From: an uncultured Pseudomonadota bacterium
GTDB lineage: Bacteria; Oederibacteriota; Muellerivitia; Muellerivitales; Muellerivitaceae
Length of the DNA stretch: 64,000 nucleotides
Reading direction: 5' to 3'
Assembly (NCBI GenBank): GCA_963770835.1
Contig: CAVYRH010000011.1
Span: 128,001 to 192,000 of the forward strand
The notes under the pieces were generated by a model. That model ran no database searches and was not told where the DNA came from. It saw only the letters and a program-made list of their open reading frames with translations. Positions 21,854 through 54,456 of the stretch are shown in pieces (the stretch's first letter is position 1; each line of letters begins with the position of its first letter). The position numbers were made by a program, and so were the translations under genes.

Positions 21854-24800
21854 TTGTGGGATTGCACCGGTCTTTGTAACACTTTTTTTAGGAAAGACCG
21901 GCGCGACCAAATCACGCTCCCTTTCCTACTGCTATCAATCTTTTTTGGATTGTTTTCAACGTGCCATGCTCTGGATTTCGGTGAAAATAAGGTTCGCTAC
22001 CACACCGACCATCATTGGAAAATCATCGAAACCGAGCACTTTCAGGTTTATTATTACGAACCTTGCCAGGATTTGGCCCAAACCGCCGCCGACATGGCCG
22101 AAAAAGCCTTTGTCTCGACCTGCCAGGCTTTTGATTACGTTCCCAAAACTAAAATCCCGCTGTTTGTTTATTCCACACCCCTCGAATTTGAGGAAACCAA
22201 TATCACACCCGAAATCCTCTCGGAGGGTGTCGGCGGTTTTACCGAGGTTTTCAAAAATCGCATCGCGGTTCCCATGGATGGTTCTTACCATGAGTTTGAA
22301 AAAGTAATTCACCACGAACTAACCCATGCTTTCCAGTACGATCTCATTTATGGCGAAGGTTGGAGGTCGGTGAACCTTTTCAAGGCTGTTTTTGTGCCGA
22401 ATTGGATGATGGAGGGCATGGCGGAGTGGAATGCGCAACACCTTGACGCGCAGGGAGAGATGGTCTTACGGGACGCCATCTTAAACGACCAGGTTATGCC
22501 CCTTAGCCTTATGGAGTCCTTCGAACATTTTCCCCAGGTATACACGGCATATAAGGAATCCCAAAGCATCCTGGATTATGTCACTCAGGTGTATGGGAAG
22601 GGAAAAGTGGTGGAAATATTCAAACATATGGCCGCCAATCAACAACCCGACACGGCTATTAAAAACGTCTTAGGGGTTTCCTTGGATGAGCTTTACGCCA
22701 ATTGGCACTTTTACATGAAATCCCAGGCTTGGTCGCGGATAAATGGGCTTCCCGCACCGGAAAAATATGGGGAAGTCCTGGAAAAAGGCGGCCTGGGGGG
22801 CGCCATGAAAACCGCAATTTCTCCGGATGGTAAAAACCTAGCTCTCATCAAGGGAAGGGAACTATCCATGATCCACCTTGAGGATAAGAAGAAAAACGTT
22901 CTATTAAACAAACCGTTTCAAGTACAAGGATCAGGGATTGCATGGTCACCAGATGGTCGATTCTTGGCCTTCGCCGCCGCGGACGGTGGAGAGGATCGAC
23001 TTTACATTTACGATTTGGAGCGGTCGTCGTTACGGAAATGCACCATTCAAGGAATACCGATTGTTTCCTCACCTTCCTGGTCCCCCGACCAAAAATTCAT
23101 CATTTTCAGTGGATTCAACTATACAAATACCGATCTTTACCGATATGAGGTTTCCACGGAAAAGGTCGATCGCCTGACGAACGATAACGACTTTAAAACT
23201 TGGGCTCAGTACGGTCCTGAGGGCAGATATATTTATTTCATTAATGAAAGCGGTGGCCGGCAGGAAATCAGAAAAATATCCCTAAATGAAAAAGGAATTC
23301 CAGTGGGTGTTCCCACGTCCGTCGAAAAGAATTTAGGAACGATCGCCTCCCTTGTGGTTTGGCCTGGTCATCTTTACTTCACCTCGGACTTGAGTCGCAG
23401 AATCTTCAATGTTTTTCAAACGGATGAGGAGGGCGGCCATTTAACCCAGCTGACCAACACCTTTGCGGATGTTTTGAGCGTTTCTCCGGCTCCCGACACT
23501 CAAAAACTATATGCCATTAGTTACCAAAAAGGGATGGAGACAATCTTTGCCTTCGCCATGACGAATGTCGAAAAAATGGAATGGCCACCCTCCGCGTTCG
23601 GAACGATGACTAGTGAATTTTCCTATATTTCCAATTCATTTGAAAACGCCTCTAAGATTATCGGAGTCAATCCAATTAAAGACGTGCCAAAAGAAGCCGA
23701 TTTTCCATCCAATACAGATCGGGATGAACCTGAAATCGTTCAGCAGAAAAAAATACCTGTTCGGCCCCCATCCGCTGTAACGCACCTTGAAATAACCGAG
23801 GCTTCTAATATTGTCCAGCTTCAGTGGCCGGTTTCCGGTGTGGAAGATGATGGAGTTGAAAGCTATCGCGTCTACCGGTCTACCTCCGCCGGAACAACCT
23901 TTTCTTACATTGGAACCAGCACCAACATGCGACAAGGACAATATGTGGATTATGATGTGCAGAACAACGGAACCTATTTTTATTATGTCACTGCTGTCAA
24001 TAAAATCGGGGAAAGCGATCCATCGCCCCTCGTGGAAGTTCATCCCTCATTCAAAGTGGCTTACGAAGATTACCGGTTTAGTTTAACGCCCGATGTCCTG
24101 CTTTTCTTGGCCGGTTACGACAGTTCCTTCGGTTTTGTTGGCGGTGGCGTGGCCCAAATGAGCGATTATCTGGGGGATCATCGAATTGGGATTTTGGGGG
24201 ACACCATCCCTGGTGTGAGGACCGGCGTCGAAGCCAATTATGAGTTCTCCGAATGGCGAACAACGGTTGACCTGGACTACTTTTACTACCAAAACTATTT
24301 TAACATTTACGACCTTCAGAGTGGCAACATCGTCAACCAGTACCGGAACAACGAAAATGGGTTTACTCTGAATTTCAGCTATCCCATCGACACGGCGACC
24401 CGGGTCGAGTACGGGTTTGGCACCCAGCGGTTTTTGGGAAGTCCCATTTACCTTCAATTTTCCGAGGGAATTTCCAATTACAACCTCAACACCGATGAGT
24501 GGAACGTAGCCAATTTTTACCGTCTTTCCTTCGTCCAAGACAAACGTAGAGGGACTCAATTTTGGCCCAGTAGCGGATATGGGCTTAATTTCACCTTGCT
24601 ACATGCCATCCCTGTTTTGGATTCAAATGTATCTTTCGCAAACTTGCTTTTTGAAACGGACGTTTTTGCCGATTTCAGTTTTTTGAATCACCTCGTCTGG
24701 GCCAACCGATTCATCGCCATGACTTCGCAGGGACCCAATCCTCAAACCTTTTTTATTGGCGACGATGCTCCTTTTGAGGATTATTTCACGACGATTCGGG

Positions 24801-25135
24801 GATACGGCGGCAGTACCTTTTTCGGGAGCAATCTTGGACTTTGGAATACTGAACTGCGCTATCCCATCGCTACAAACATGAATTTCATTCCACAACCGTT
24901 ATCTTTTTTGCTTATCAAAGATGTCGAGTTGGCGGGTTTTATGGATACTGGGGTTGTTTCAAATCAATTGGAGGACATTCCCAATTCGCCGGTCCTGAGT
25001 AGTATTGGCACTGGCATTCGGTTTTACACATTTCTCTATCAAAGAGCTCTTGTGATGTTTCGTTTTGACGTGGCCTGGAGATTGGATCAACCAGCTCCAC
25101 CAACTTTTCACTTCAACCTTGGACCGATGTTCTAA
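21854..25135 (+). CDS. Omp85/BamA-family outer-membrane protein with N-terminal gluzincin (peptidase MA-like), PD40 propeller and FN3 domains
   Basis: FGENKVRY, HELTH plus WMMEGMAEW, WSPDG repeats, FN3 (LQW..YRVYRS..YYVTAVN..GES), and barrel motifs IRGY, ELRYPI and GTGIR with terminal Phe. Start codon uncertain. Confidence 0.88.
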   Translation: MWDCTGLCNTFFRKDRRDQITLPFLLLSIFFGLFSTCHALDFGENKVRYHTDHHWKIIETEHFQVYYYEPCQDLAQTAADMAEKAFVSTCQAFDYVPKTKIPLFVYSTPLEFEETNITPEILSEGVGGFTEVFKNRIAVPMDGSYHEFEKVIHHELTHAFQYDLIYGEGWRSVNLFKAVFVPNWMMEGMAEWNAQHLDAQGEMVLRDAILNDQVMPLSLMESFEHFPQVYTAYKESQSILDYVTQVYGKGKVVEIFKHMAANQQPDTAIKNVLGVSLDELYANWHFYMKSQAWSRINGLPAPEKYGEVLEKGGLGGAMKTAISPDGKNLALIKGRELSMIHLEDKKKNVLLNKPFQVQGSGIAWSPDGRFLAFAAADGGEDRLYIYDLERSSLRKCTIQGIPIVSSPSWSPDQKFIIFSGFNYTNTDLYRYEVSTEKVDRLTNDNDFKTWAQYGPEGRYIYFINESGGRQEIRKISLNEKGIPVGVPTSVEKNLGTIASLVVWPGHLYFTSDLSRRIFNVFQTDEEGGHLTQLTNTFADVLSVSPAPDTQKLYAISYQKGMETIFAFAMTNVEKMEWPPSAFGTMTSEFSYISNSFENASKIIGVNPIKDVPKEADFPSNTDRDEPEIVQQKKIPVRPPSAVTHLEITEASNIVQLQWPVSGVEDDGVESYRVYRSTSAGTTFSYIGTSTNMRQGQYVDYDVQNNGTYFYYVTAVNKIGESDPSPLVEVHPSFKVAYEDYRFSLTPDVLLFLAGYDSSFGFVGGGVAQMSDYLGDHRIGILGDTIPGVRTGVEANYEFSEWRTTVDLDYFYYQNYFNIYDLQSGNIVNQYRNNENGFTLNFSYPIDTATRVEYGFGTQRFLGSPIYLQFSEGISNYNLNTDEWNVANFYRLSFVQDKRRGTQFWPSSGYGLNFTLLHAIPVLDSNVSFANLLFETDVFADFSFLNHLVWANRFIAMTSQGPNPQTFFIGDDAPFEDYFTTIRGYGGSTFFGSNLGLWNTELRYPIATNMNFIPQPLSFLLIKDVELAGFMDTGVVSNQLEDIPNSPVLSSIGTGIRFYTFLYQRALVMFRFDVAWRLDQPAPPTFHFNLGPMF

Positions 25136-25293
25136 AAAGCAGGTTTAAATATATTCAAAATCTCCATCCTTCGGTCAAATCAAAAGTCGGAAAATCAAAA
25201 AAGATATGTTCCTAAAAAGCAGTTGGTGGGGCAGGGAGTAGGGGCTATAATGAGCCCGCTTTCAACACTTGTCATCCCACAAGGAGCCGGTTC

Positions 25294-25956
25294 GTGAAAA
25301 AAGCCGCTCTTTCAACAGCCTTAGTGACTCTGTTACTGGCCGGTAGTCTAATCGCTCAATCGGCACCGCGAGATTTTATTTCAAATTACGAAACAATAGA
25401 TCTGGATTTTTTGCGATCCCACTACACCGAAATTAATAACGGCCGGCCAATTAAAATTGAAGGAATTTTTTCATCCTACAAATGGTTACAACCTTATGAA
25501 TATAAGACCCGTCTTAGCCGGATTGGTTTGGATTCCCGGAATTACAATTTTGCGCAAATGTCCTTAAAAGAAAACGACAGCTTTCACTACTCTTTTCCCA
25601 TTCTGCTTTTTCACACCGGTGCCGGAGATTTGCACGAATTAAACGAACTCTACCAGGATCTCCCGGTTGCCCTTTACGGAAGATTTTATAATTTGAAAGA
25701 GTCAGAATACGCCATAGAAGTGGACCTATTGGAAATTTCCAATGTTTCAACGCGCGTGGACCCGGTTGGCACTCCTGTATTTAAAATGGGGGGGCATGAC
25801 CGAGTACTCCTGCTTGATGCCCGCGTCTCACCATCTCCAACGCCAACCCCCACGGTGACGCCAACACCCCAACCAAACCTCTGGCAGAAGATTAGCAATC
25901 TCGTAAACCCAAAGGAAACGATCACTCCGACAGGAACCACCACTCCCGGAACCTGA
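25294..25956 (+). CDS. Hypothetical exported protein with (PT)n tail
   Basis: GTG start after AAGGAG, signal peptide, and SPSPTPTPTVTPTP. Confidence 0.8.
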   Translation: MKKAALSTALVTLLLAGSLIAQSAPRDFISNYETIDLDFLRSHYTEINNGRPIKIEGIFSSYKWLQPYEYKTRLSRIGLDSRNYNFAQMSLKENDSFHYSFPILLFHTGAGDLHELNELYQDLPVALYGRFYNLKESEYAIEVDLLEISNVSTRVDPVGTPVFKMGGHDRVLLLDARVSPSPTPTPTVTPTPQPNLWQKISNLVNPKETITPTGTTTPGT

Positions 25957-26025
25957 AGTCGTCTTCTTGATCTTATTTTCTATAATGTCTCCCTTTTATA
26001 TTTGTCTTTCCAGCAGAGGTTTTCG

Positions 26026-27009
26026 TTGAAAAAACAGGTTCTCATCACCAACGAATTACCGGATGCCGCCTACCTTTTCTTGTGCCGAAAATACAACGTC
26101 ACCTGGCACAAGCGTCAATTAACGGAACGACAGTTAATTTCTAAAATCAGGCCCTTTCATTCAATCTTGACTACCCTAGCTGATCCTATAACTGAAAAGG
26201 TAATTGTGGCGGCTCCCCAATTGGAATGTATTGCCAATCTCGCCGTTGGCTATAACAACATTGACCTAAAAACCGCCAAAGCCAGGGGTATCTGGGTGAC
26301 CAACACCCCAGAGGTCCTTACAGAAGCCACAGCTGATATTGCTTGGGCGCTTCTTTTGTCTTGTGCCAGGAGGGTTCCTGAAGGCGACCGGATGGTACGT
26401 TCGGGTAAATTCAAGGGAGCACACCCCCTAACCTTACTAGGTGTTGATTTGTTTGGAAAAACTTTGGGTATCTACGGTTTTGGGAGGATCGGCAAGGCGG
26501 TGGCCCGGCGGGGAAGGGGATGGAATATGAATGTACTCTATCACCAACGCCACCGTGAATCCAAAAGGGTAGAAAAGGGTCTAAATGCCCGGTATGTTCC
26601 TTTTAAAACCCTTCTGGAGCAATCGGACTTCCTGAGTGTAAACAGTCCATTGACCTCAGAAACTCTTCAACGCTTCACGAGAAGGGAATTCAAAAAAATG
26701 AAAAGAACCGCTATTTTCATTAATACGGGCCGAGGACTTATCCATCTTGAACAAGATCTTGTCGAGGCCCTAAAAAAAGGGTGGATCTATTCAGCGGGTT
26801 TGGACGTATATGAATCAGAGCCTCGGATTGAAAAACAGATTTTGAGACTGCAAAATTGTACTTTGCTTCCGCATATTGGAAGTGCCACAGTTGGAACCCG
26901 CGATGCCATGGCATTGTTGGCGGCCAAAAATATCGACTTGGTACTTTCCGGACACCTTCCAGAAACACCGGTTTTTTATTTGTCGAAAAAGGATAGATTA
27001 AAAACTTAA
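26026..27009 (+). CDS. D-isomer-specific 2-hydroxyacid dehydrogenase (glyoxylate/hydroxypyruvate reductase-like)
   Basis: AVGYNNID, TNTPEVL, GFGRIG, INTGRG, LDVYESEP and PHIGSAT. TTG 26026 follows GAGG. Confidence 0.95.
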   Translation: MKKQVLITNELPDAAYLFLCRKYNVTWHKRQLTERQLISKIRPFHSILTTLADPITEKVIVAAPQLECIANLAVGYNNIDLKTAKARGIWVTNTPEVLTEATADIAWALLLSCARRVPEGDRMVRSGKFKGAHPLTLLGVDLFGKTLGIYGFGRIGKAVARRGRGWNMNVLYHQRHRESKRVEKGLNARYVPFKTLLEQSDFLSVNSPLTSETLQRFTRREFKKMKRTAIFINTGRGLIHLEQDLVEALKKGWIYSAGLDVYESEPRIEKQILRLQNCTLLPHIGSATVGTRDAMALLAAKNIDLVLSGHLPETPVFYLSKKDRLKT

Positions 27010-27059
27010 AGTAAAACTTCAGAGTCAATAGCATTAAATCTGATTTAAAAGGACTTTAA

Positions 27060-27827
27060 ATGTCGGCTCCTGTTATCCAATCCGTTGCCACGGGGACCGG
27101 AAAAGCGATTGTTCTTTTGCACGCCTTTCCGCTTTCGCATTCGATTTGGAAGGCCATTAAACCTCCTTTGGGACATTCTTTGATTCTGCCCGATTTTCCA
27201 GGGTTCGGCGAATCACCTTTTGCACCTTCAGGCTTGACGCTCTCAGATGTGGCGGAAGGGCTCGAAAATCATTTAAATCAAAGGGGAATTACGGACCAAG
27301 TTATTTTGGGCGGTATTTCCATGGGCGGTTACTGGGCAATGGAATACCTAAGACGTTTTCCGGGGCGGATTGCCAAGGTGATCTTTATCTCCACACGACC
27401 CGGGTTGGACAAATCCGAGACCCGTCAAAGCAGGTTGAATATGGCTGAAAAGGTGCTCAAAGAAGGCACAGAATTCTTGATTAAGGACATGGTCCCCGGT
27501 CTCTTGGGAAAATCGACTTTGTCGGATAAACCTGGAGTTGTGGACCAAGTCAGTCGATGGATTCGGACAACAAAACCAGGCGCCGTGGCCTTGGCTCAGC
27601 GCGCTATGGCAGAGCGAAGGGATCAAACCGACCTAATGCCGACTTTAAGGGTGCCTGCACTTATCGTGGCCGGCCGCGAGGATGCCTTGATCCCGGTATC
27701 GGAGGCTGAAGCCATGGCTAAAGCCATCCCTGGTAGTCGAATAAAAATCTTGGAACATGTTGGCCACTTGGTACCGATCGAAGACCCAACCCGATTTCAA
27801 AAAATTATTAACGAGTTCCTGACTTAG
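27060..27827 (+). CDS. Alpha/beta fold hydrolase
   Basis: LLHAFP, DFPGFGES, nucleophile elbow GISMGG, GREDALIP and GHL. Confidence 0.93.
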   Translation: MSAPVIQSVATGTGKAIVLLHAFPLSHSIWKAIKPPLGHSLILPDFPGFGESPFAPSGLTLSDVAEGLENHLNQRGITDQVILGGISMGGYWAMEYLRRFPGRIAKVIFISTRPGLDKSETRQSRLNMAEKVLKEGTEFLIKDMVPGLLGKSTLSDKPGVVDQVSRWIRTTKPGAVALAQRAMAERRDQTDLMPTLRVPALIVAGREDALIPVSEAEAMAKAIPGSRIKILEHVGHLVPIEDPTRFQKIINEFLT

Positions 27828-28012
27828 TCGCCCCAAATAGCTTAAGACAAGATGCCGCTCCCGTTTGCTTTGATGTCGTAGAATCGCTCAAAAAAATGGC
27901 CTTCAAATGCAAAATCCAGGAGTTTCATTGCCTCAGCTCCAAACGTTCTAGGATCTTTCTGGAACTGGCATTTCTCCCGAAACTCAAAATTCTTCTTTTC
28001 AAAACTCAACTT

Positions 28013-28040
28013 TTTCGGTATATCTACAATTATACCGAGA
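28013..28040. other. Candidate dif-like recombination site (11-6-11 dyad) or operator of the recombinase gene
   Basis: TTTCGGTATAT-CTACAA-TTATACCGAGA, arms 9/11 complementary with a perfect TCGGTATA/TATACCGA core. It ends 12 bp before the recombinase start and contains a TACAAT -10-like hexamer. Confidence 0.6.
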
Positions 28041-28052
28041 CAGGAAAGCTCT

Positions 28053-29117
28053 TTGAACCAAAAATCCAAATCCAATTCCCAAAGAACCCCACCAAACCTG
28101 CTGGAGCTAACGCCATACGACGGATTCCTGGCCCTTTGCAAATCTTCCCACACCAAAGAAAACTACCACCAGGACCTGCGAGTTCTTAAACAATTTCTAG
28201 ATCGTTCCAATATTCATGTTCCGGCGGACGCAAGGCCAGAACAGATGGTCCACTTTGCTGGTGCCTTGACCAAACCAGGTTTTACGCCAAGTGGCAAGCC
28301 CCGGGTTGCTTATTCCACCCGTTCTATGAAGCGCATCTTGGCGACGACACGGTCTTTCTACCGCTATTTGGCTTCCATCCAACATATTGCCACTGATCCT
28401 ACGGCCGTTTTCCACAACCTGGCCATTCGCAGTCCCCAACGCAATCCCCGCCCCTTACCGCCCAAGGACCGCGAAGCCCTGGTAAAAGGTCTCCAAACGG
28501 TCGATTTGGAGGGTCAAAAAGTCAGCTTGGTGGTCTTACTTGGTTATCATTGCGGCCTCCGGGTCTCTGAGATTGCCCATCTCAAAGTTCGGGATTTGGA
28601 CCCAGACCAAGGCCTCGTTACCGTCATCGGCAAAGGCGACAAGGAGCGAACGGTACCCATGACCGAGGCGTTGAAAGAAGTCCTAAAACATTACCTGGGC
28701 AATCGACCGGAAAATTCGGGAGTCCATCTTTTTCCAAGCCCCAGCACCACCAGTAAACCCATTCATGTGGATTATCTGGAAACATGGGTCAAAAAAGCCG
28801 CCCAATGGGCAAATCTTGAAAATCCAACCGAGCTGACCGTACACGTCCTTCGACATTCCTTTGGCACCCAATTGGCCGAATCAGGCGCCAGTGTGTATGA
28901 AATCCGGGATTTGATGGGTCATTCCAGCATCATGGTTAGCGAAAATTACGTAAAGCTGGCCTCCACCAAGGCCCGTTCGGCTCACAGGAAGGCCTTTGAG
29001 GATGGAACCAAGGTTCATGCCTTGAACCTGGGCAGTTTGTTTGGGATCGAATCGGTCTTAAAACGCTTCCGGGCCATAAACCGGAAAACTTTGCCCAATA
29101 ATTCTGATGGAGCTTAA
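28053..29117 (+). CDS. Tyrosine recombinase (Xer family, divergent)
   Basis: Complete catalytic set: GLRVSE (R), GKGDKER (K), HVLRH (H-x-x-R), MGH (H) and ENY (Y). N-terminal SAM-like domain; TTG start after AGGAAAG. Confidence 0.93.
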   Translation: MNQKSKSNSQRTPPNLLELTPYDGFLALCKSSHTKENYHQDLRVLKQFLDRSNIHVPADARPEQMVHFAGALTKPGFTPSGKPRVAYSTRSMKRILATTRSFYRYLASIQHIATDPTAVFHNLAIRSPQRNPRPLPPKDREALVKGLQTVDLEGQKVSLVVLLGYHCGLRVSEIAHLKVRDLDPDQGLVTVIGKGDKERTVPMTEALKEVLKHYLGNRPENSGVHLFPSPSTTSKPIHVDYLETWVKKAAQWANLENPTELTVHVLRHSFGTQLAESGASVYEIRDLMGHSSIMVSENYVKLASTKARSAHRKAFEDGTKVHALNLGSLFGIESVLKRFRAINRKTLPNNSDGA

Positions 29118-29582
29118 AAATTCTCAAAAGGCCCTTTTAAATTAGTTAAGAGTTTATAAGTTGCGGTTTATGAAGTGGATTTTGAACCAAGAGAAGCTGT
29201 TCGGCAGGCTTCATGGTTTGTTTAAATTTAAGGCGGCCAAAATACGCTGATTTTGCATTTAAATGGCATTCTTTTAGACGATTTTTCACTATCTGCAACT
29301 TTGTACTTGGTATCCCAACGCCTAAAATTGGCTGAAAGCGCCGCTGGAAAACAAACGTTAAGGCCGATTCAAAAGACCAAAATTTTGGTGTCATCGACGT
29401 TAGGATCGACAAACCCCGGAATTTGGTGGATTAATCGGGTTTATGTCATATCGACATTGCATGGTTCATTTCAGGTCCTTTCCAAATTTTGCATTGCTTA
29501 GAGATGGAGTGGATTTCGTTCTGTTTCAAAGGCAAAATCAGGGCTTCTGAAATTTATTAAAGTTTTACTTTAGGGGGTTATC

Positions 29583-30740
29583 CTGTACTTTTCTGACCGT
29601 ACACCCAGGGATCTTTCACCTAATCGAATCGCCCGAGCCATTGAGCAAATAGTTAGACGAGGTATCCTAGATTTAACCGAGTCTAATCCCACTCGTTGCG
29701 GGGTTGACTATCCACCAGACCTCCTTCAGGCCTTAAGCCGGCCAGCTGGATTTACCTATGAACCTCACCCTTTTGGTCTGCCCGAGGCCCGCCATGCGGT
29801 GGCCGACTATCTCAACACCAAGGGCCAATTGGTAGACCCGGCCAAGGTCGTTTTGACTGCTAGTACCAGTGAGGCGTATTCGTTTCTCTTCAAGCTCCTG
29901 GGAGATTCCGGTAGTTCTTTCTTGGTTCCTGCACCAGGTTATCCCCTTCTGGACCATTTGCTGCGCCTGGAAGGCATGGAACTAATTCCCTATCCCCTTC
30001 GAATGGCCGTGGATTGGCCAGTGGACTTAAGACGAACGGAAAAGACTGTAAATTCTGCCTGCCGAGGGCTGGTTGTTGTTAATCCTCACAACCCGACCGG
30101 TACCTTTTTAAGCTGCAAGGATCAAGAAGCCTTAGGAAATATCTGTGACAAAAAACAAATAGCCTACATTGCAGACGAGGTTTTCGCGGATTATGGCTAC
30201 CTTGGTGAGTTTTTTAAGCCTTGGGTACCAAATAATACCCTTTCTTTCCGTCTTGGCGGCCTTTCCAAGAGTGTGGGGCTTCCCCAGCTAAAACTTTCTT
30301 GGATCATCTTGGACGGCCCATCAAGCCTCCTAGATGAATGCCAGAACAGATTGGAACTGGTCGCCGATACCTATTTATCCGTTAATACTCCAGTTCAACT
30401 GGCCCTTAAAGATCTACTGGCATTCGCCCCTTTGTTTCAAAAACAATTAATCGACAGGGTCATGAACAACCGACGTTTTCTTGCCCAAGAGCTCCAAAGC
30501 TTAGATAAAGCCAAACTTTGGCCTGCTCAAGGAGGATGGTATGCGTTGGTAGAAATAACCGAAAAAGATGCCCGGGAGGAACAAATAGTGCTCGACCTAT
30601 TAGAAAAGTACCAGGTTCTTGTCCAGCCTGGGGCTTTTTATGATTTTCCGGTGGGATGTTTCCTGGTTTTAAGTCTTTTGCCCATTCCGACGGTTTTTCA
30701 GGAAGGTGTTGCTAGATTTAAAAAATACATTAAAGGTTAA
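29583..30740 (+). CDS. PLP-dependent aminotransferase class I/II
   Basis: LTASTSEAYS, NPHNPTG, DEVF and GLSKSVGLPQLKLSW. The family-like N-terminus (YFSDRTP.DL.PN..LDLTESNPT) extends to CTG 29583, just after an in-frame TAG at 29571. Confidence 0.9.
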   Translation: MYFSDRTPRDLSPNRIARAIEQIVRRGILDLTESNPTRCGVDYPPDLLQALSRPAGFTYEPHPFGLPEARHAVADYLNTKGQLVDPAKVVLTASTSEAYSFLFKLLGDSGSSFLVPAPGYPLLDHLLRLEGMELIPYPLRMAVDWPVDLRRTEKTVNSACRGLVVVNPHNPTGTFLSCKDQEALGNICDKKQIAYIADEVFADYGYLGEFFKPWVPNNTLSFRLGGLSKSVGLPQLKLSWIILDGPSSLLDECQNRLELVADTYLSVNTPVQLALKDLLAFAPLFQKQLIDRVMNNRRFLAQELQSLDKAKLWPAQGGWYALVEITEKDAREEQIVLDLLEKYQVLVQPGAFYDFPVGCFLVLSLLPIPTVFQEGVARFKKYIKG

Positions 30741-30765
30741 AAACAAAACCCGGAAGTCAGTCTTT

Positions 30766-31464
30766 TTAGGACTGGAGGTTTTTCAAGCGGCGGCCAGCTT
30801 CCAGTCCCCAACTGCTATCGGCATCAGTTTGAGAAAGGGTTTTCAACTGTTCAATTGACTTAGCCTTATCCTTGTTTCTAAGGTAGATATCCGAGAGTTC
30901 TAAGCGAAGTTCACTCCCGATGAAACTGGTGGAATGATCACGTAAAAAAGCTTCAGCTATAGTAGCGGCTTGTGGAAACTGGTTTTGGGATTCCAAGCAA
31001 AGGATCTTTCCCAAGTAGGCCTCATCTCCCAGGGGAATATCCTTTAATTCCTGAGTGGCTGTATCAAAGCTAGCGTAAGCCTGGGTATATTGACCCAGGG
31101 AGTACTCGCATTTGGCCGCATAATAGCGGGCCAATTTGGCGGTCTGGGTCCCGGAATAATCGGTAAGGATACGTTGAAAAGTTTGAAGAGACTGTTTGTA
31201 TTTTTCAACGTCGCTTTTAAAAGGACCGTTTTGGGGATCAACGGGCGAGTGAAGATAGTATTGACCCCGATTCAACACCTCCTGGGCATCTTTTTCACTT
31301 TGTTCCCGGCTATGGAGTATATATGGAACTCCAATTCCCACCAGCAACAGGACAATACCGGCCACAGCGATGAATTCTTGATGGGCCTTGGCCCAGTCCA
31401 GCCATTTTTCCGTTTCGGACTTTTCGTGCGGGATCGGGTTTAAACCACTCCAATGGGTCGCCAT
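30766..31464 (-). CDS. Membrane-anchored TPR protein (YfgM/CpoB-like)
   Basis: Single N-terminal TM followed by TPR helices (AKLARYYAAKCEYSLGQY..A). Confidence 0.8.
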   Translation of the reverse strand: MATHWSGLNPIPHEKSETEKWLDWAKAHQEFIAVAGIVLLLVGIGVPYILHSREQSEKDAQEVLNRGQYYLHSPVDPQNGPFKSDVEKYKQSLQTFQRILTDYSGTQTAKLARYYAAKCEYSLGQYTQAYASFDTATQELKDIPLGDEAYLGKILCLESQNQFPQAATIAEAFLRDHSTSFIGSELRLELSDIYLRNKDKAKSIEQLKTLSQTDADSSWGLEAGRRLKNLQS

Positions 31465-31512
31465 TCCAACCACCTTTTAAAATCAAGTTTGAGACAAAAT
31501 CTACCGTTTTTC

Positions 31513-31541
31513 AAAAAAGAAGCCTTCCCTTCGGGGAAGGC
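31513..31541 (-). terminator. Rho-independent terminator downstream of tRNA-Arg
   Basis: GCCTTCCC-TTCG-GGGAAGGC hairpin with an adjacent A-tract (U-tract on the - strand). Confidence 0.8.
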
Positions 31542-31550
31542 CTCATCCAA

Positions 31551-31627
31551 TGGTACCCTCGACGCGAATCGAACGCGTGACCTACCCTTTAGGAAAGGGT
31601 CGCTCTATCCAACTGAGCTACGAGGGC
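31551..31627 (-). tRNA. tRNA-Arg (anticodon CCU)
   Basis: GCCCTCGTAGCTCAGTTGGATAGAGCG...CCCTTT-CCT-AAAGGG...GTTCGATTC...GAGGGTACCA; 77 nt with encoded CCA. Confidence 0.96.
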
Positions 31628-31667
31628 CTTTTCCTGCAACCCTCAGGTAAAAGGAAGTCCGGTGAAA

Positions 31668-32180
31668 TCAGAACTGAAGTATAGAGAAAACAGGGGTGCT
31701 TTTCAATTTTTCGTGGCCGTTAAGGAACCTTAAATGAATAAGAAAACAGGCCCCTACCACATCTCCTCCGGCCCTTTCCACTAGCCGAATGGTCGCAGCG
31801 GCGGTGCCACCAGTTGCCAAGACGTCGTCCAAGATTAAAATTTTATCCCCTTTGGAAATGGAATCTTCATGAATTTCAAGGGTGTCTGTCCCATATTCCA
31901 GTTCATAAGTTTCCCGAAGGGTCTTCCATGGTAACTTTCCAGGTTTTCGCACCGGGATGAAAGAGATGCCCATAAAGGTGGACAATGCGCCACCCAGGAT
32001 AAAGCCACGGGATTCCATGGCCACGATGGAATTTATTTTTTGACCCTTGTACTGATCCGCCATTCGGTGGATGACTTCCTGAAAAGCCTTCGGGTCTTTC
32101 AGAAGTGGGGTGATGTCTTTAAAGATAATTCCCTTCTTGGGAAAATCTGGCACATCGCGGATCAGAGTTTTGAAGTCCAC
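31668..32180 (-). CDS. apt: Adenine phosphoribosyltransferase
   Basis: [31 protein letters not shown] and DDVLATGGT. Confidence 0.98.
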
Positions 32181-32302
32181 ACTTTATCCTTCGTAAATGA
32201 AATACACGATCGGATGGGCCTCGGTAAAAAAAAACGCCAAATTTATCAGGTAACTTGCAATGATAATGAATAGGTTTTAAGAGGTTTTAGTCGGGAGGGA
32301 GT

Positions 32303-33286
32303 TTACACAAATTCGTTCAAAAGTTCACGATATTCTTCGTTACAGGCCTTCATTAAGAAACGAATTTTTTGCAATGCCTTTTCTTCAATCTGACGAATCC
32401 GCTCACGGGTAACACCTAAAAGGGTCCCGGTTTGTTCTAGGGTTTTGGGTTGGTCCTGCTCGAAGCCGAAACGCATCAGAATTACCTTTTGCTCTTTGTC
32501 ATTCAGTGTGCTGATAAGCTTCTTGAGTTTTTCAGATCGAAGTTGATCGAAAACGTTTTGAGCCGGACTCATTACCGATTTATCCTCTATGAAATCGCCG
32601 ATAGATTTGGAGTTGGACTCGTCCCCCACCGGGACTTCCAAGGAAATGTTTTTTTGGGCCAAACGTTGAAGTTTGTGGATCTTTTCGAATTTCAATTTGC
32701 CAGCCTTGGAAATTTCCATAAGGCTGGGATCGCGTCCCAACTTGCGGGTAAGATCCCGGGAGATGCGTTCAAAACGGTTGATGTCCTCGGAAACGTGGAC
32801 GGGCACGCGGACGGTGCGGGACTGGTTGGAAAGGGCTCGCGTGATGGCTTGGCGTATCCACCAAGTTGCGTAAGTGCTGAACTTAAAGCCACGACGCCAG
32901 GAGAACTTTTCGCTGGCCTTGATAAGCCCTAAGTTCCCTTCCTCTATCAAATCCTGGAAGGAAAGACCCTGGTTCATGTATTTCTTGGCCACCTTAATCA
33001 CCAGCCTCAGATTGGCGGCGATCAAGGCCTGTTTGGCTTTCAAATCATTTTTTTCAATACGCTTCGCCAGCATCACTTCCTCTTCAGCGGTCAGCAGTTT
33101 AACGCGGGAAATTTCACGGAAGTATAGTTTGAGACTGTCGGTAGTAATACGCTCAAGGCTTTTAGACTCGGGGGAAGTGTTCGCTTTTTTCTCGATAATG
33201 GGAATTAACGGAGCAATAATTCGGCTGGTGGAGCTAGTTTTGGCCTTTAATCGTTTTTTTAGCCCCATAGATTCGCCTTTACCCAT
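32303..33286 (-). CDS. Sigma-70 family RNA polymerase sigma factor, group 2 (RpoS-like; no region 1.1)
   Basis: [47 protein letters not shown] and [10 protein letters not shown]. Confidence 0.93.
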
Positions 33287-33561
33287 CAACCTTGGATTTT
33301 GAACTCTTCAAACTTCTCGGGCGTTTCGAACCATTGAAACCGTGTACTCGAAACCCGGCTTCCAATGGGACCCACCTTTAAGCTTTGCATAAACTGTTCC
33401 AAGGCTGGCCTTGAGCCTGAGGCAAAAACCTCCACGGATCCATCAGGCAAATTGCGCACCCAACCCGTTAAACCCAAGTTATCGGCGGTCTCTTTTGTAA
33501 AATAACGAAAACCTACCCCTTGTACCCTTCCAAGGACGGTTCCTGTGAAAGCGTTAAACAT
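33286..33561 (-). CDS. acyP: Acylphosphatase
   Basis: [10 protein letters not shown] and [15 protein letters not shown] 33561 after GGAGG. Confidence 0.96.
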
Positions 33562-33715
33562 AAGAAACCTCCGTAAATTCAAAGCAGAGAATTTGTCAGA
33601 TTTCTGAATAATTAGGGCTTTTTTTTGACTTTTTTAAGAAATGTGGTAGGGCCTAAAACTTCGGGAAAAACAGGTGGGCTTTTTGATTCGCGAACCGGGA
33701 AACGACCTTGAAAAA

Positions 33716-33792
33716 TGGTCGGGGCGGCAGGATTTGAACCTGCGACCTTTTGCACCCCATGCAACTGCGCTACCGGGCTGCGCCACGCCCCG
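33716..33792 (-). tRNA. tRNA-Pro (anticodon GGG)
   Basis: CGGGGCGTGGCGCAGCCCGGTAGCGCA...AT-GGG-GT...GGTTCAAATCC...CCCCGACCA. Confidence 0.95.
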
Positions 33793-33855
33793 ACGAATCA
33801 ATTAAATTTAAGTCGACTCAATAATGGACGGAGAAGACCATCCAGAATAGTTTTC

Positions 33856-33931
<76 letters not shown>

Positions 33932-34062
33932 TCCAGAAAACCTTTCCCCAAAGGGAGGCATACTATAGGTGAAATTATAGTTCTGTTCAAGAAAAGAAGG
34001 GCCAGAAAACGCTCTAATTATTGGTTCTTCCGGGGCATCTAGGATTCGAGGAACAAAAGAGC

Positions 34063-53706: not shown

Positions 53707-54324
53707 TTACTGGGGATGGGAATCCGAGGCGCGGCGGGAGTGGGAGAGGGCGGGTTGAATCACTGCTTCCACTTTGGGCTGAAGGAAGTTCATAAATTTC
53801 CTGGGTTTGGGGCAGTTCAACAAAACGAGAGGACCTGCGGGGCTACCGGTATCGATTTCGATGTGACCGTAATTAAAAAGAAGGCCGACTATACTTTGCT
53901 GAAAACCGACCCGTCTAACGGAACCATAGGGAGCAGAAACGACTCGGTGCAAGGGGAACCAACTTTCGATGGTGACGTCATGCGAGGTAAGTCGGTAGCA
54001 GGTTCCAATCTGCCAAAGGTTGTGGTAGACCGCCGCGGCAATGGCGATCCAAACCAGTCCCCGCTCCGCCCAAAATAGCCCGAGGTCGGCCCAAGCGACT
54101 GGCAATCCCTTTAAATTAAGAAAGACCTCCTTCAGGTAGGGCGGAAACCAAAGGAAAAACCGATGGGCCAAATACCAAAAAATGCCCGCCAGGGCATAAG
54201 CCAGGAAGACCACCCACCAGGAAGGCGTGGCCTTCAGGACGAGGTCGGCTGAGGAAGGGGCCTGTGCGTGAACGCCCCCCGGTTTAGAGTGAAGGGAATG
54301 GTCAGGAGCTGTCGTTTTTGTCAT
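53707..54324 (-). CDS. Membrane protein with bacterial PH (bPH_2) domain
   Basis: 2 TM, Y.LT, QSIVGLLFNYGHIEIDTG and P.P. Confidence 0.8.
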   Translation of the reverse strand: MTKTTAPDHSLHSKPGGVHAQAPSSADLVLKATPSWWVVFLAYALAGIFWYLAHRFFLWFPPYLKEVFLNLKGLPVAWADLGLFWAERGLVWIAIAAAVYHNLWQIGTCYRLTSHDVTIESWFPLHRVVSAPYGSVRRVGFQQSIVGLLFNYGHIEIDTGSPAGPLVLLNCPKPRKFMNFLQPKVEAVIQPALSHSRRASDSHPQ

Positions 54325-54456
54325 TTCAGGCTGTTTTTTTTGAAGATGTTAATAACCGGTGTCTTCATGATAATCCTTTGAACAGACAGGTTAATTTACC
54401 AAAAAAGTGAGAGCTTTTCACCCACGGCGCTTCCCTATTCTCCAAGATTCCCGGCC

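Follow-up and report, generated by a model that had tools for sequence, protein, structure and literature searches.

A candidate single-recombinase Xer/dif module at a terminus-type polarity switch in the bacterial order FCPU426

The window analysed here is a 64,000-nucleotide stretch (G000:C11:128001-192000) of the bacterial genome assembly G000, which is 96.4% complete and comprises 4.58 Mb in 26 contigs. It carries the gene of an Xer-type tyrosine recombinase and, directly upstream of it, a 28-bp dyad with the 11-6-11 form of a dif site. To assess what this pair may do, both were compared across 99 genomes of the phylum, 32 of which belong to the same order, FCPU426. The core of the locus consists of the following features.

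28053..29117, + strand: single Xer-type tyrosine recombinase gene, 354 amino acids, a single-copy core gene of the order (open reading frame call, homologue search, domain scan)
28560..28949, + strand: catalytic residues R170 to Y299 (R-K-H-R-H-Y), invariant in 31 sequences
28013..28040, no strand assigned: dif-like 11-6-11 site of the 'CGG' arm class, with left arm 28013-28023, spacer 28024-28029 and right arm 28030-28040 (a dyad at each of the 30 orthologue loci that have upstream DNA)

The recombinase gene and its upstream dyad

The recombinase gene begins with a TTG codon at 28053. In a domain scan its product shows a Phage_integrase and a Phage_int_SAM_1 domain, and no arm-binding domain. 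The initial annotation of this DNA had described a tyrosine recombinase of 354 amino acids with a full catalytic set, and this description holds for the open reading frame 28053-29117: R170, K194, H264, R267, H290 and Y299 are invariant across 31 aligned homologues. The same annotation regarded the LMGHSSIMVSENY box as atypical. The sequence of the box is indeed divergent; however, H290 and Y299 are present in it at normal spacing, and therefore it diverges in sequence only.

The dyad reads TTTCGGTATAT-CTACAA-TTATACCGAGA, pairs at 9 of 11 arm positions and ends 12 bp before the TTG, so that its coordinates and pairing were reproduced as first reported. Dyads with 9/11 pairing number 7 in the window, compared with 10.8 ± 3.6 in 100 Markov-resampled copies. 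Because such a dyad alone is at chance level, the evidence for the site is its conservation. When the TATAW core is required as well, one dyad is found in the window, none in the resampled copies and two in the 4.58-Mb genome.

Conservation was examined at 30 orthologue loci, leaving out G008, which has no upstream DNA, and G016, which has no orthologue. An 11-6-11 dyad lies within about 30 bp of the gene start in all 30, at a distance of 0-31 bp, which bears out the expectation that it would recur upstream of orthologues. At 25 of these loci the arms pair at 10 or 11 of 11 positions. The outer seven arm positions are paired in 189 of 210 cases, as against 119 ± 9 (maximum 152) in 10,000 between-genome arm shuffles, a comparison in which related genomes are not independent. 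The inner TATAW is almost invariant, and the outer arms change jointly on both sides, in a compensatory manner. That is, the site is conserved through its symmetry, not its sequence. The spacer ends are T..G in 21 loci, C..A in 8 and T..A in one; one A/T and one G/C end are therefore present in 29/30, in either orientation to the gene. On the chromosome the dyad is single-copy, non-coding, low in GC and conserved in the lineage. A second site with the chromosomal spacer was not found in G000, where other dyads are confined to a plasmid-like contig.

The site also overlaps a predicted promoter of the recombinase gene.

27996..28024, + strand: predicted sigma-70 promoter of the recombinase gene, with the -10 box within the left arm; degenerate here, with 8/12 matches (gene-strand against reverse-strand match over 30 loci)

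Across loci, the -35 box stands 16-18 bp before a -10 box inside the site, usually the TATAAN of the left arm, and the gene-facing promoter match exceeds the reverse one in 27/30. The initial annotation had read the spacer hexamer TACAAT as a -10 box; this was not borne out, since that hexamer is not conserved and the conserved -10 box is the TATAAN of the left arm.

Two conserved genes flank the recombinase gene.

27060..27827, + strand: alpha/beta hydrolase gene, conserved upstream neighbour (domain scan, synteny)
29583..30740, + strand: class I/II aminotransferase gene, conserved downstream neighbour, start approximate; its end is the gene-orientation switch (domain scan, synteny)

The upstream gene ends at 27827, leaving a gap of 225 bp, and the aminotransferase frame starts near 29583, leaving about 465 bp 3′ of the recombinase gene. 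The earlier picture of a lone gene between about 225 and 465 bp of non-coding DNA is thus confirmed from the neighbour coordinates. So are the absence of an adjacent tRNA that could serve as an attachment (att) site, the closest tRNA being at 31551, and the proximity to the point where all genes converge, which lies at 30740/30766 in the window. GC content is 0.456-0.48 at 24000-34000, compared with 0.50-0.58 in the rest of the window; a lowered GC content is usual near termini.

Distribution in the order and position at the polarity switch

An orthologue with 54-83% identity is present in 31 of the 32 order genomes (25/26, 5/5 and G072), and the only genome without one, G016, is 63% complete. 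Wherever both neighbours were recovered, the gene sits between the alpha/beta hydrolase and the aminotransferase, with occasional insertions. An HNH-like open reading frame lies between the dyad and an upstream 46-bp element, described below, in three genera (L002, L008, L015); other genes or open reading frames resembling insertion sequences (IS) lie near the site in G004, G020 and G024.

Xer families were assigned by the cut-offs of their models, namely 335 bits for XerC (TIGR02224), 329.6 for XerD (TIGR02225), 220 for XerA (NF040815) and 267 for XerS. None of the 32 order genomes contains an XerC or XerD above its cut-off, consistent with the proposal of the initial annotation, whereas across the phylum XerD is found in 54/99 genomes and XerC in 28/99. 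The recombinase itself scores 161.6 bits against the XerC model and 147.8 against the XerD model. The best XerC matches within the order, at most 262 bits and in 7/32 genomes, are adjacent gene pairs that form a clade of their own; such pairs are repeated within G017 and within G074. G000 has 11 further integrase-domain matches, with far lower scores against the recombinase, and the two that were inspected are phage-type integrases. In an unrooted tree of 84 rows, the recombinase clade falls outside the XerC and XerD groups of the phylum, among unnamed proteins.

Elsewhere in the phylum, the families f3, f9 and f14 mostly have one Xer match of 270-305 bits. In G069, of family f14, the Xer gene has a 10/11 dyad immediately at its start (L434:1315-1342). 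Possibly, the Xer proteins of these families form a second, separate single-Xer system. The proteins P0126-P0128 and about 50 other matches of 600-870 amino acids include many with two tandem recombinase domains; P0126, the sole tandem protein scanned, scores as a fused XerC-XerD-like pair.

Only once in the assembly does gene orientation switch convergently on a large scale, namely on the contig of the window, C11, at a distance of 2.7 kb from the site; the amplitude of this switch is 103,662 coding bp, compared with 22,641 for the runner-up. The dnaA gene is on a different contig (C4). Replichore polarity was assessed with octamers whose strand bias does not follow gene direction; they were selected on 9 other contigs, with C11 held out. 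On C11 the octamer polarity reverses between 154,681 and 157,942 (95% interval 150,854-157,942), an interval that includes the site, at 156,013; 291 octamers point toward the site and 100 away from it. The octamers next to the site are as follows.

26681..26688, + strand: final polar octamer of the leftward replichore before the site, a candidate resembling an FtsK-orienting polar sequence (KOPS) (octamer scan)
29942..29949, - strand: first polar octamer of opposite orientation past the site, from the 15-octamer set (octamer scan)

Two sequences, GAAGGGAA and AAGGGAAG, are strand-biased genome-wide in G000, whatever the gene direction (322:83 and 311:97, respectively), and are candidates for the FtsK-orienting sequence of the lineage. 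KOPS motifs of the E. coli, Bacillus and Lactococcus types were rejected: their skew is weak (787:555, 119:106 and 1233:904), and a different, purine-rich set is skewed instead. GC skew was likewise set aside as a terminus marker, being too flat; near the site its cumulative curve has the right polarity and forms a broad plateau.

In four relatives, in each of which 170-200 kb were examined, the gene-orientation peak lies 2.3-4.1 kb from the site (4/4), and the 95% interval of the 15-octamer set includes the site (4/4). Gene orientation and polar octamers thus both reverse at the site, here and in all four relatives, and the initial placement of the site at a terminus-type switch stands. FtsK-gamma is present in 29/32 order genomes, including 18/18 of high quality. 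Its QR and GN motifs, named as contacting XerD in PMC5357621, are preserved.

Recognition helix, arm classes and plasmid-like dyads

A short segment of the recombinase varies together with the outer arms of the site.

28764..28775, + strand: codons 238-241 (HVDY), at which the predicted outer-arm recognition helix begins, co-varying with arm class (alignment, co-variation)

In XerD, R220 and Q221 set specificity. Residues 238-241, predicted to be the start of the outer-arm recognition helix, align with a T-R-Q-T stretch in E. coli XerD that precedes the histidine counted as H225 by six residues. The XerH helix at the matching position lies in the outer-arm major groove, and H225 of XerD is a named contact (PMC5241119).

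To compare helix and arm, we used the 28 genomes having both on one contig; G010 and G019 were excluded, as the gene is split across two contigs. Helix residues agree with arm class in 28/28. All 13 DY enzymes go with a TCGG or TTGG arm, on both sides in 12; the 3 RY enzymes have TTCA on both arms; for the 9 H-P-H/N-F enzymes, CTTC occurs on one arm or on both (both in 7); and the 3 N238 enzymes have at least one TAG arm. The rule was set on the first 23 loci, and of the 7 added later, 5 fit it and 2 formed the new TAG class. Among all alignment columns, tested over 26 rows (excluding G011, G074 and G008), column 240 has the strongest association with arm class (0.82), followed by 241 and 36.

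In three genera, congeners differ in arm class despite support of 98-99 for their grouping by the neighbouring aminotransferase. On a tree built without the helix columns, 7 changes are required for each trait, helix and arm. The full-length tree had suggested that the module as a whole was swapped horizontally among genera. This was rejected: the signal is weaker without the helix columns, and approximately unbiased (AU) tests lend it no support, genus monophyly not being rejected for the recombinase (p 0.19 and 0.33).

Class-based searches recovered 15 further dyads of chromosomal arm type, on 8 non-terminus contigs of 7 genomes. These searches were built from the arm classes and hence were not blind, and the near-identical contigs G014:C14 and G024:C55 were counted once. 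Six of the 8 contigs encode ParA, ParB, a type IV coupling protein and a putative relaxase without a family match, the other two being short fragments; 6/8 bear two or three dyads of different classes. The spacers of the plasmid-like dyads are never of the chromosomal type, and therefore these dyads would neither integrate at the chromosomal site nor delete one another. A dyad of the host class is present in G000, G017, G018, G021 (both contigs) and G073; for G014 and G024 the match is limited to one arm. G000 (CGG host) and G021 (TTC host) have related elements, with ParA proteins 89% identical, and the TTC dyad is found only in that of G021. G000:C12 is only a candidate plasmid and ends in chromosomal-looking genes; this contig carries no integrases, and G014:C14 carries its own. 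Most plasmid-like dyads adjoin a TTGACA hexamer and could be regulatory.

On G000:C12 (L033:7198-7256), two dif-like dyads stand 3 bp apart and are followed by a conserved gene of 114 amino acids without a known family, whose product could be an Xer activation factor or cassette cargo. For a small plasmid protein behind one dyad, neither a Pfam nor a PHROG family was found, and Atlas matches stayed below 0.9. Four viral contigs (L275-L278) have perfect CGG-type 11-6-11 dyads beside tyrosine integrase genes. They were not counted, since they belong to unrelated phages (open reading frames read for 2/4), and are probably convergent att or operator sites.

From these sequence patterns, the family may repeatedly re-key its essential dif/Xer lock: one to three residues of 238-241 would switch along with both outer arms between classes, of which there are at least four, and within genera this would have happened several times. 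Its plasmids would carry 'key rings' of two or three different-class dif mimics with private spacers, which would resolve multimers in a host of any class. We put this forward tentatively, being somewhat more doubtful than convinced. If true, a one-enzyme recombinase with a symmetric site would have a compact specificity code of natural origin, and host and mobile elements would be engaged in an arms race at dif. The code of helix and arm classes, together with the multi-class plasmid sites, is the part most worth testing.

Proposed mechanism, alternatives and known systems

We consider it very probable that the module resolves chromosome dimers through one recombinase, as a variant of the single-recombinase systems. 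The initial proposal of a single-Xer/dif system in this lineage is supported by the lack of XerC and XerD above cut-off, the conserved dyad and the polarity switch. In this mechanism, a single enzyme would occupy the two arms of the 28-bp site and carry out recombination between sister copies of it, probably after FtsK has been guided there by the polar purine-rich octamers. The invariant inner TATAW would be the cleavage core, the W....S asymmetry of the spacer would set the orientation of the site, and residues 238-241 would read the outer arm, giving rise to at least four specificity classes. Because the left arm doubles as a -10 box, bound protein would repress its own gene; for the family, such autorepression is a reasonable inference. 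Plasmid-like elements may borrow the enzyme by means of dyads with the same arms and different spacers. Because there is one GyrA/ParC gene per genome (5/5 genomes), the recombinase may also aid decatenation. Finally, the ancestor of the gene may be a phage integrase that took over from XerCD, an origin made plausible by the prophage integrase P0138 among the sister proteins.

Several observations weigh against this interpretation. Binding, cleavage and recombination at the site are predictions from sequence and position. Every assembly is fragmented. The change point of the two-octamer set is about 50 kb off in G004 and G025, with wide intervals; the raw GC-skew maxima are 20, 27, 30 and 97 kb from the site in the four relatives, and the third-position maximum is 28 kb from it in G000. 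That protein and site co-vary indicates no more than binding; an operator would co-vary likewise. The N-terminal columns 36, 63 and 71 also co-vary with arm class, and independent-pair tests of helix against arm gave 2, 3 and 3 pairs, nearly all concordant and too few for significance. G000 is among the three loci at which the gene-facing promoter match does not exceed the reverse one (8/12 compared with 10/12), pointing to a weak promoter here. The deep branches of the recombinase tree are weakly supported (81-91). Lastly, a sister protein, P0138, is a prophage integrase in G011, encoded beside a RecE-like exonuclease and an endolysin; the prophage-like region that holds it (L523:4419-10263, on G011:C20) adjoins his genes. 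In the tree placement, then, the separation from the XerC and XerD of the phylum stands, and a separation from mobile-element integrases is only partial.

The dyad might instead be a mere autoregulatory operator of a domesticated integrase that has another function at the terminus, with dimers resolved by other means or at a site that escaped notice. The promoter overlap in 27/30 loci, the TTGACA hexamers next to plasmid-like dyads and the co-variation of helix and arm, which suits any binding site, would all fit an operator. Against it speak the invariant catalytic residues, the fixed 6-bp spacer with its W/S end asymmetry in 29/30, the lack of a second chromosomal-spacer site in the genome, the lack of XerCD in the 32 order genomes and the polarity-switch position in 5/5 genomes examined. 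We regard this alternative as improbable.

Even less probable is that an old integrated element, located near the terminus by chance, accounts for the pair, the gene being its integrase and the dyad its attachment site. The prophage integrase P0138 in the sister clade and the HNH-like and IS-like insertions beside the site in some relatives would suit such an element; the prophage-integrase sister, though, bears on origin, not on present role. The patchy spread, cargo and paired att sites of mobile-element integrases were not found, in that the gene is intact in 31/32 genomes at a single syntenic place, has no cargo and has no second degenerate att copy near it. In this respect too the initial annotation, which reported no cargo of a phage or of an integrative and conjugative element, was correct. 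Nor was a close member of the clade found in viral contigs, the best among 80 kept matches having 34% identity; a metagenome scan for distant members gave one in-clade locus among 80 kept.

The proposed dimer-resolution system appears to work like XerS/difSL, XerH/difH, XerA and XerL, and by family tests it is not XerS, XerH or XerA. With XerS/difSL of streptococci and lactococci and XerH/difH of Helicobacter and Campylobacter it shares one recombinase of about 355 amino acids, the terminus position, FtsK, and a site beside the gene as a module (PMC5357621, PMC2731167). It differs in score, with 79.6 bits against the XerS cut-off of 267, and with 36.3 bits for the XerH chain compared with 86-87 for XerD and XerA in a PDB search. 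The near-perfect 11-bp repeats and TATAW core are unlike the arms of the 31-bp difSL and of difH quoted in PMC5357621. Also different from XerS and XerH, the site here contains the -10 box of the gene, and several arm classes occur in one family. The single GyrA/ParC gene recalls H. pylori, in which XerH was proposed to aid decatenation and both its loss and its overexpression disturbed segregation, according to PMC3325230.

Archaeal XerA/dif likewise combines a single enzyme with an 11-6-11 site, sometimes as a xerA/dif module (PMC5357621), and XerA is, with XerD, the best-scoring named Xer chain in the PDB search. However, the recombinase reaches 131.9 bits against the XerA cut-off of 220, its host is bacterial, and XerA is described as FtsK-independent, whereas FtsK-gamma and octamer polarity are found here. 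XerL/dif of the Legionellales resembles the present system in its order-wide single recombinase, its long uninterrupted inverted arms and its exploitation by mobile elements (PMC9765430); in L. pneumophila, though, gene and site are more than 400 kb apart, compared with 0-31 bp here. XerC/XerD-dif, cer/psi and Acinetobacter pdif have in common with it a 28-bp 11-6-11 site, polarity of the FtsK/KOPS type and host-type sites on plasmids. In contrast to XerC/XerD-dif, one enzyme and symmetric arms are found here, and in contrast to cer/psi/pdif, the plasmid-like contigs juxtapose different arm classes, not single-class sites of the XerC/XerD type. The recombinase proteins may already be in the datasets of PMC8138268, which describes the 'Cand' subgroup of simple tyrosine recombinases. 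Among the literature matches listed, which covered few subscription journals, we found no description of Xer/dif in FCPU426, of helix-arm classes of a single Xer or of multi-class plasmid sites.

Such a module would represent an independent one-enzyme route to dimer resolution. It has apparently taken the place of XerCD in this one order, the rest of the phylum having mostly retained XerCD. The 28 natural enzyme-site pairs, in four classes tied to residues 238-241, make a change of specificity in recombinase and symmetric site, with an essential function preserved, directly testable; if orthogonal, the classes would be a ready-made compact Cre-like tool set. With their sites of several classes, the plasmid-like contigs hint at how mobile elements retain a broad host range despite such drift.

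The site and the gene are bracketed by two copies of a further conserved sequence in inverted orientation.

27880..27925, + strand: non-palindromic conserved 46-bp element, upstream copy, pointing at the site (motif search)
29240..29285, - strand: the same 46-bp element, downstream inverted copy, pointing at the site (motif search)

A model of 47 copies has strong matches in 31/31 family genomes, which are near copies by construction, and only weak matches in G025 and 11/67 other phylum genomes. G006 and G022 have no near element pair, only distant copies, and retain gene and site; next to the site the element is thus dispensable. Least probable of all the alternatives is that the recombinase acts on the two inverted elements and inverts or moves the cassette, the dyad being secondary: inverted elements do bracket site and gene, and congeners differ in arm class as though cassettes had been exchanged, but the orientation of the cassette is constant relative to both neighbours wherever recovered, G006 and G022 dispense with both near copies, the elements have no 11-6-11 form, and the AU tests do not reject genus monophyly.

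In being few, non-palindromic and mostly oriented about dif, the elements resemble the fork traps Tus-Ter and RTP-Ter; on recombinase-bearing contigs 52 copies point toward the site and 2 away, by hand count. Here, by contrast, no Tus or RTP match was found in 5/5 genomes, one copy in G006 points away, and fork blocking is putative. The element was rejected as a structured RNA, having no Rfam match and no consensus fold on either strand. It was also rejected as a phage sequence: two scans gave 0 matches, and the 9 and 2 matches in others, in unrelated low-GC phages, score 0.6-25 compared with 39-65 for true copies. The core half alone is found in integrase-bearing elements inside genomes, where it lies in a control region between small excisionase-like and relaxase-like genes (G000:C5:243020-243039, L034; L280, L282, L285-L289). 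Distant copies of the element (L279, L281, L509-L519) lie within a non-coding repeat of about 200 bp ending in AATAA-N3-CTTA, a motif that may resemble an integration host factor (IHF) site. A weak third copy (score 14) is located at 54303-54352 (- strand) of the window, about 730 bp before a gene resembling that of 3-deoxy-D-arabino-heptulosonate 7-phosphate (DAHP) synthase, and stronger copies occupy the equivalent position in G012, G023 and G074.
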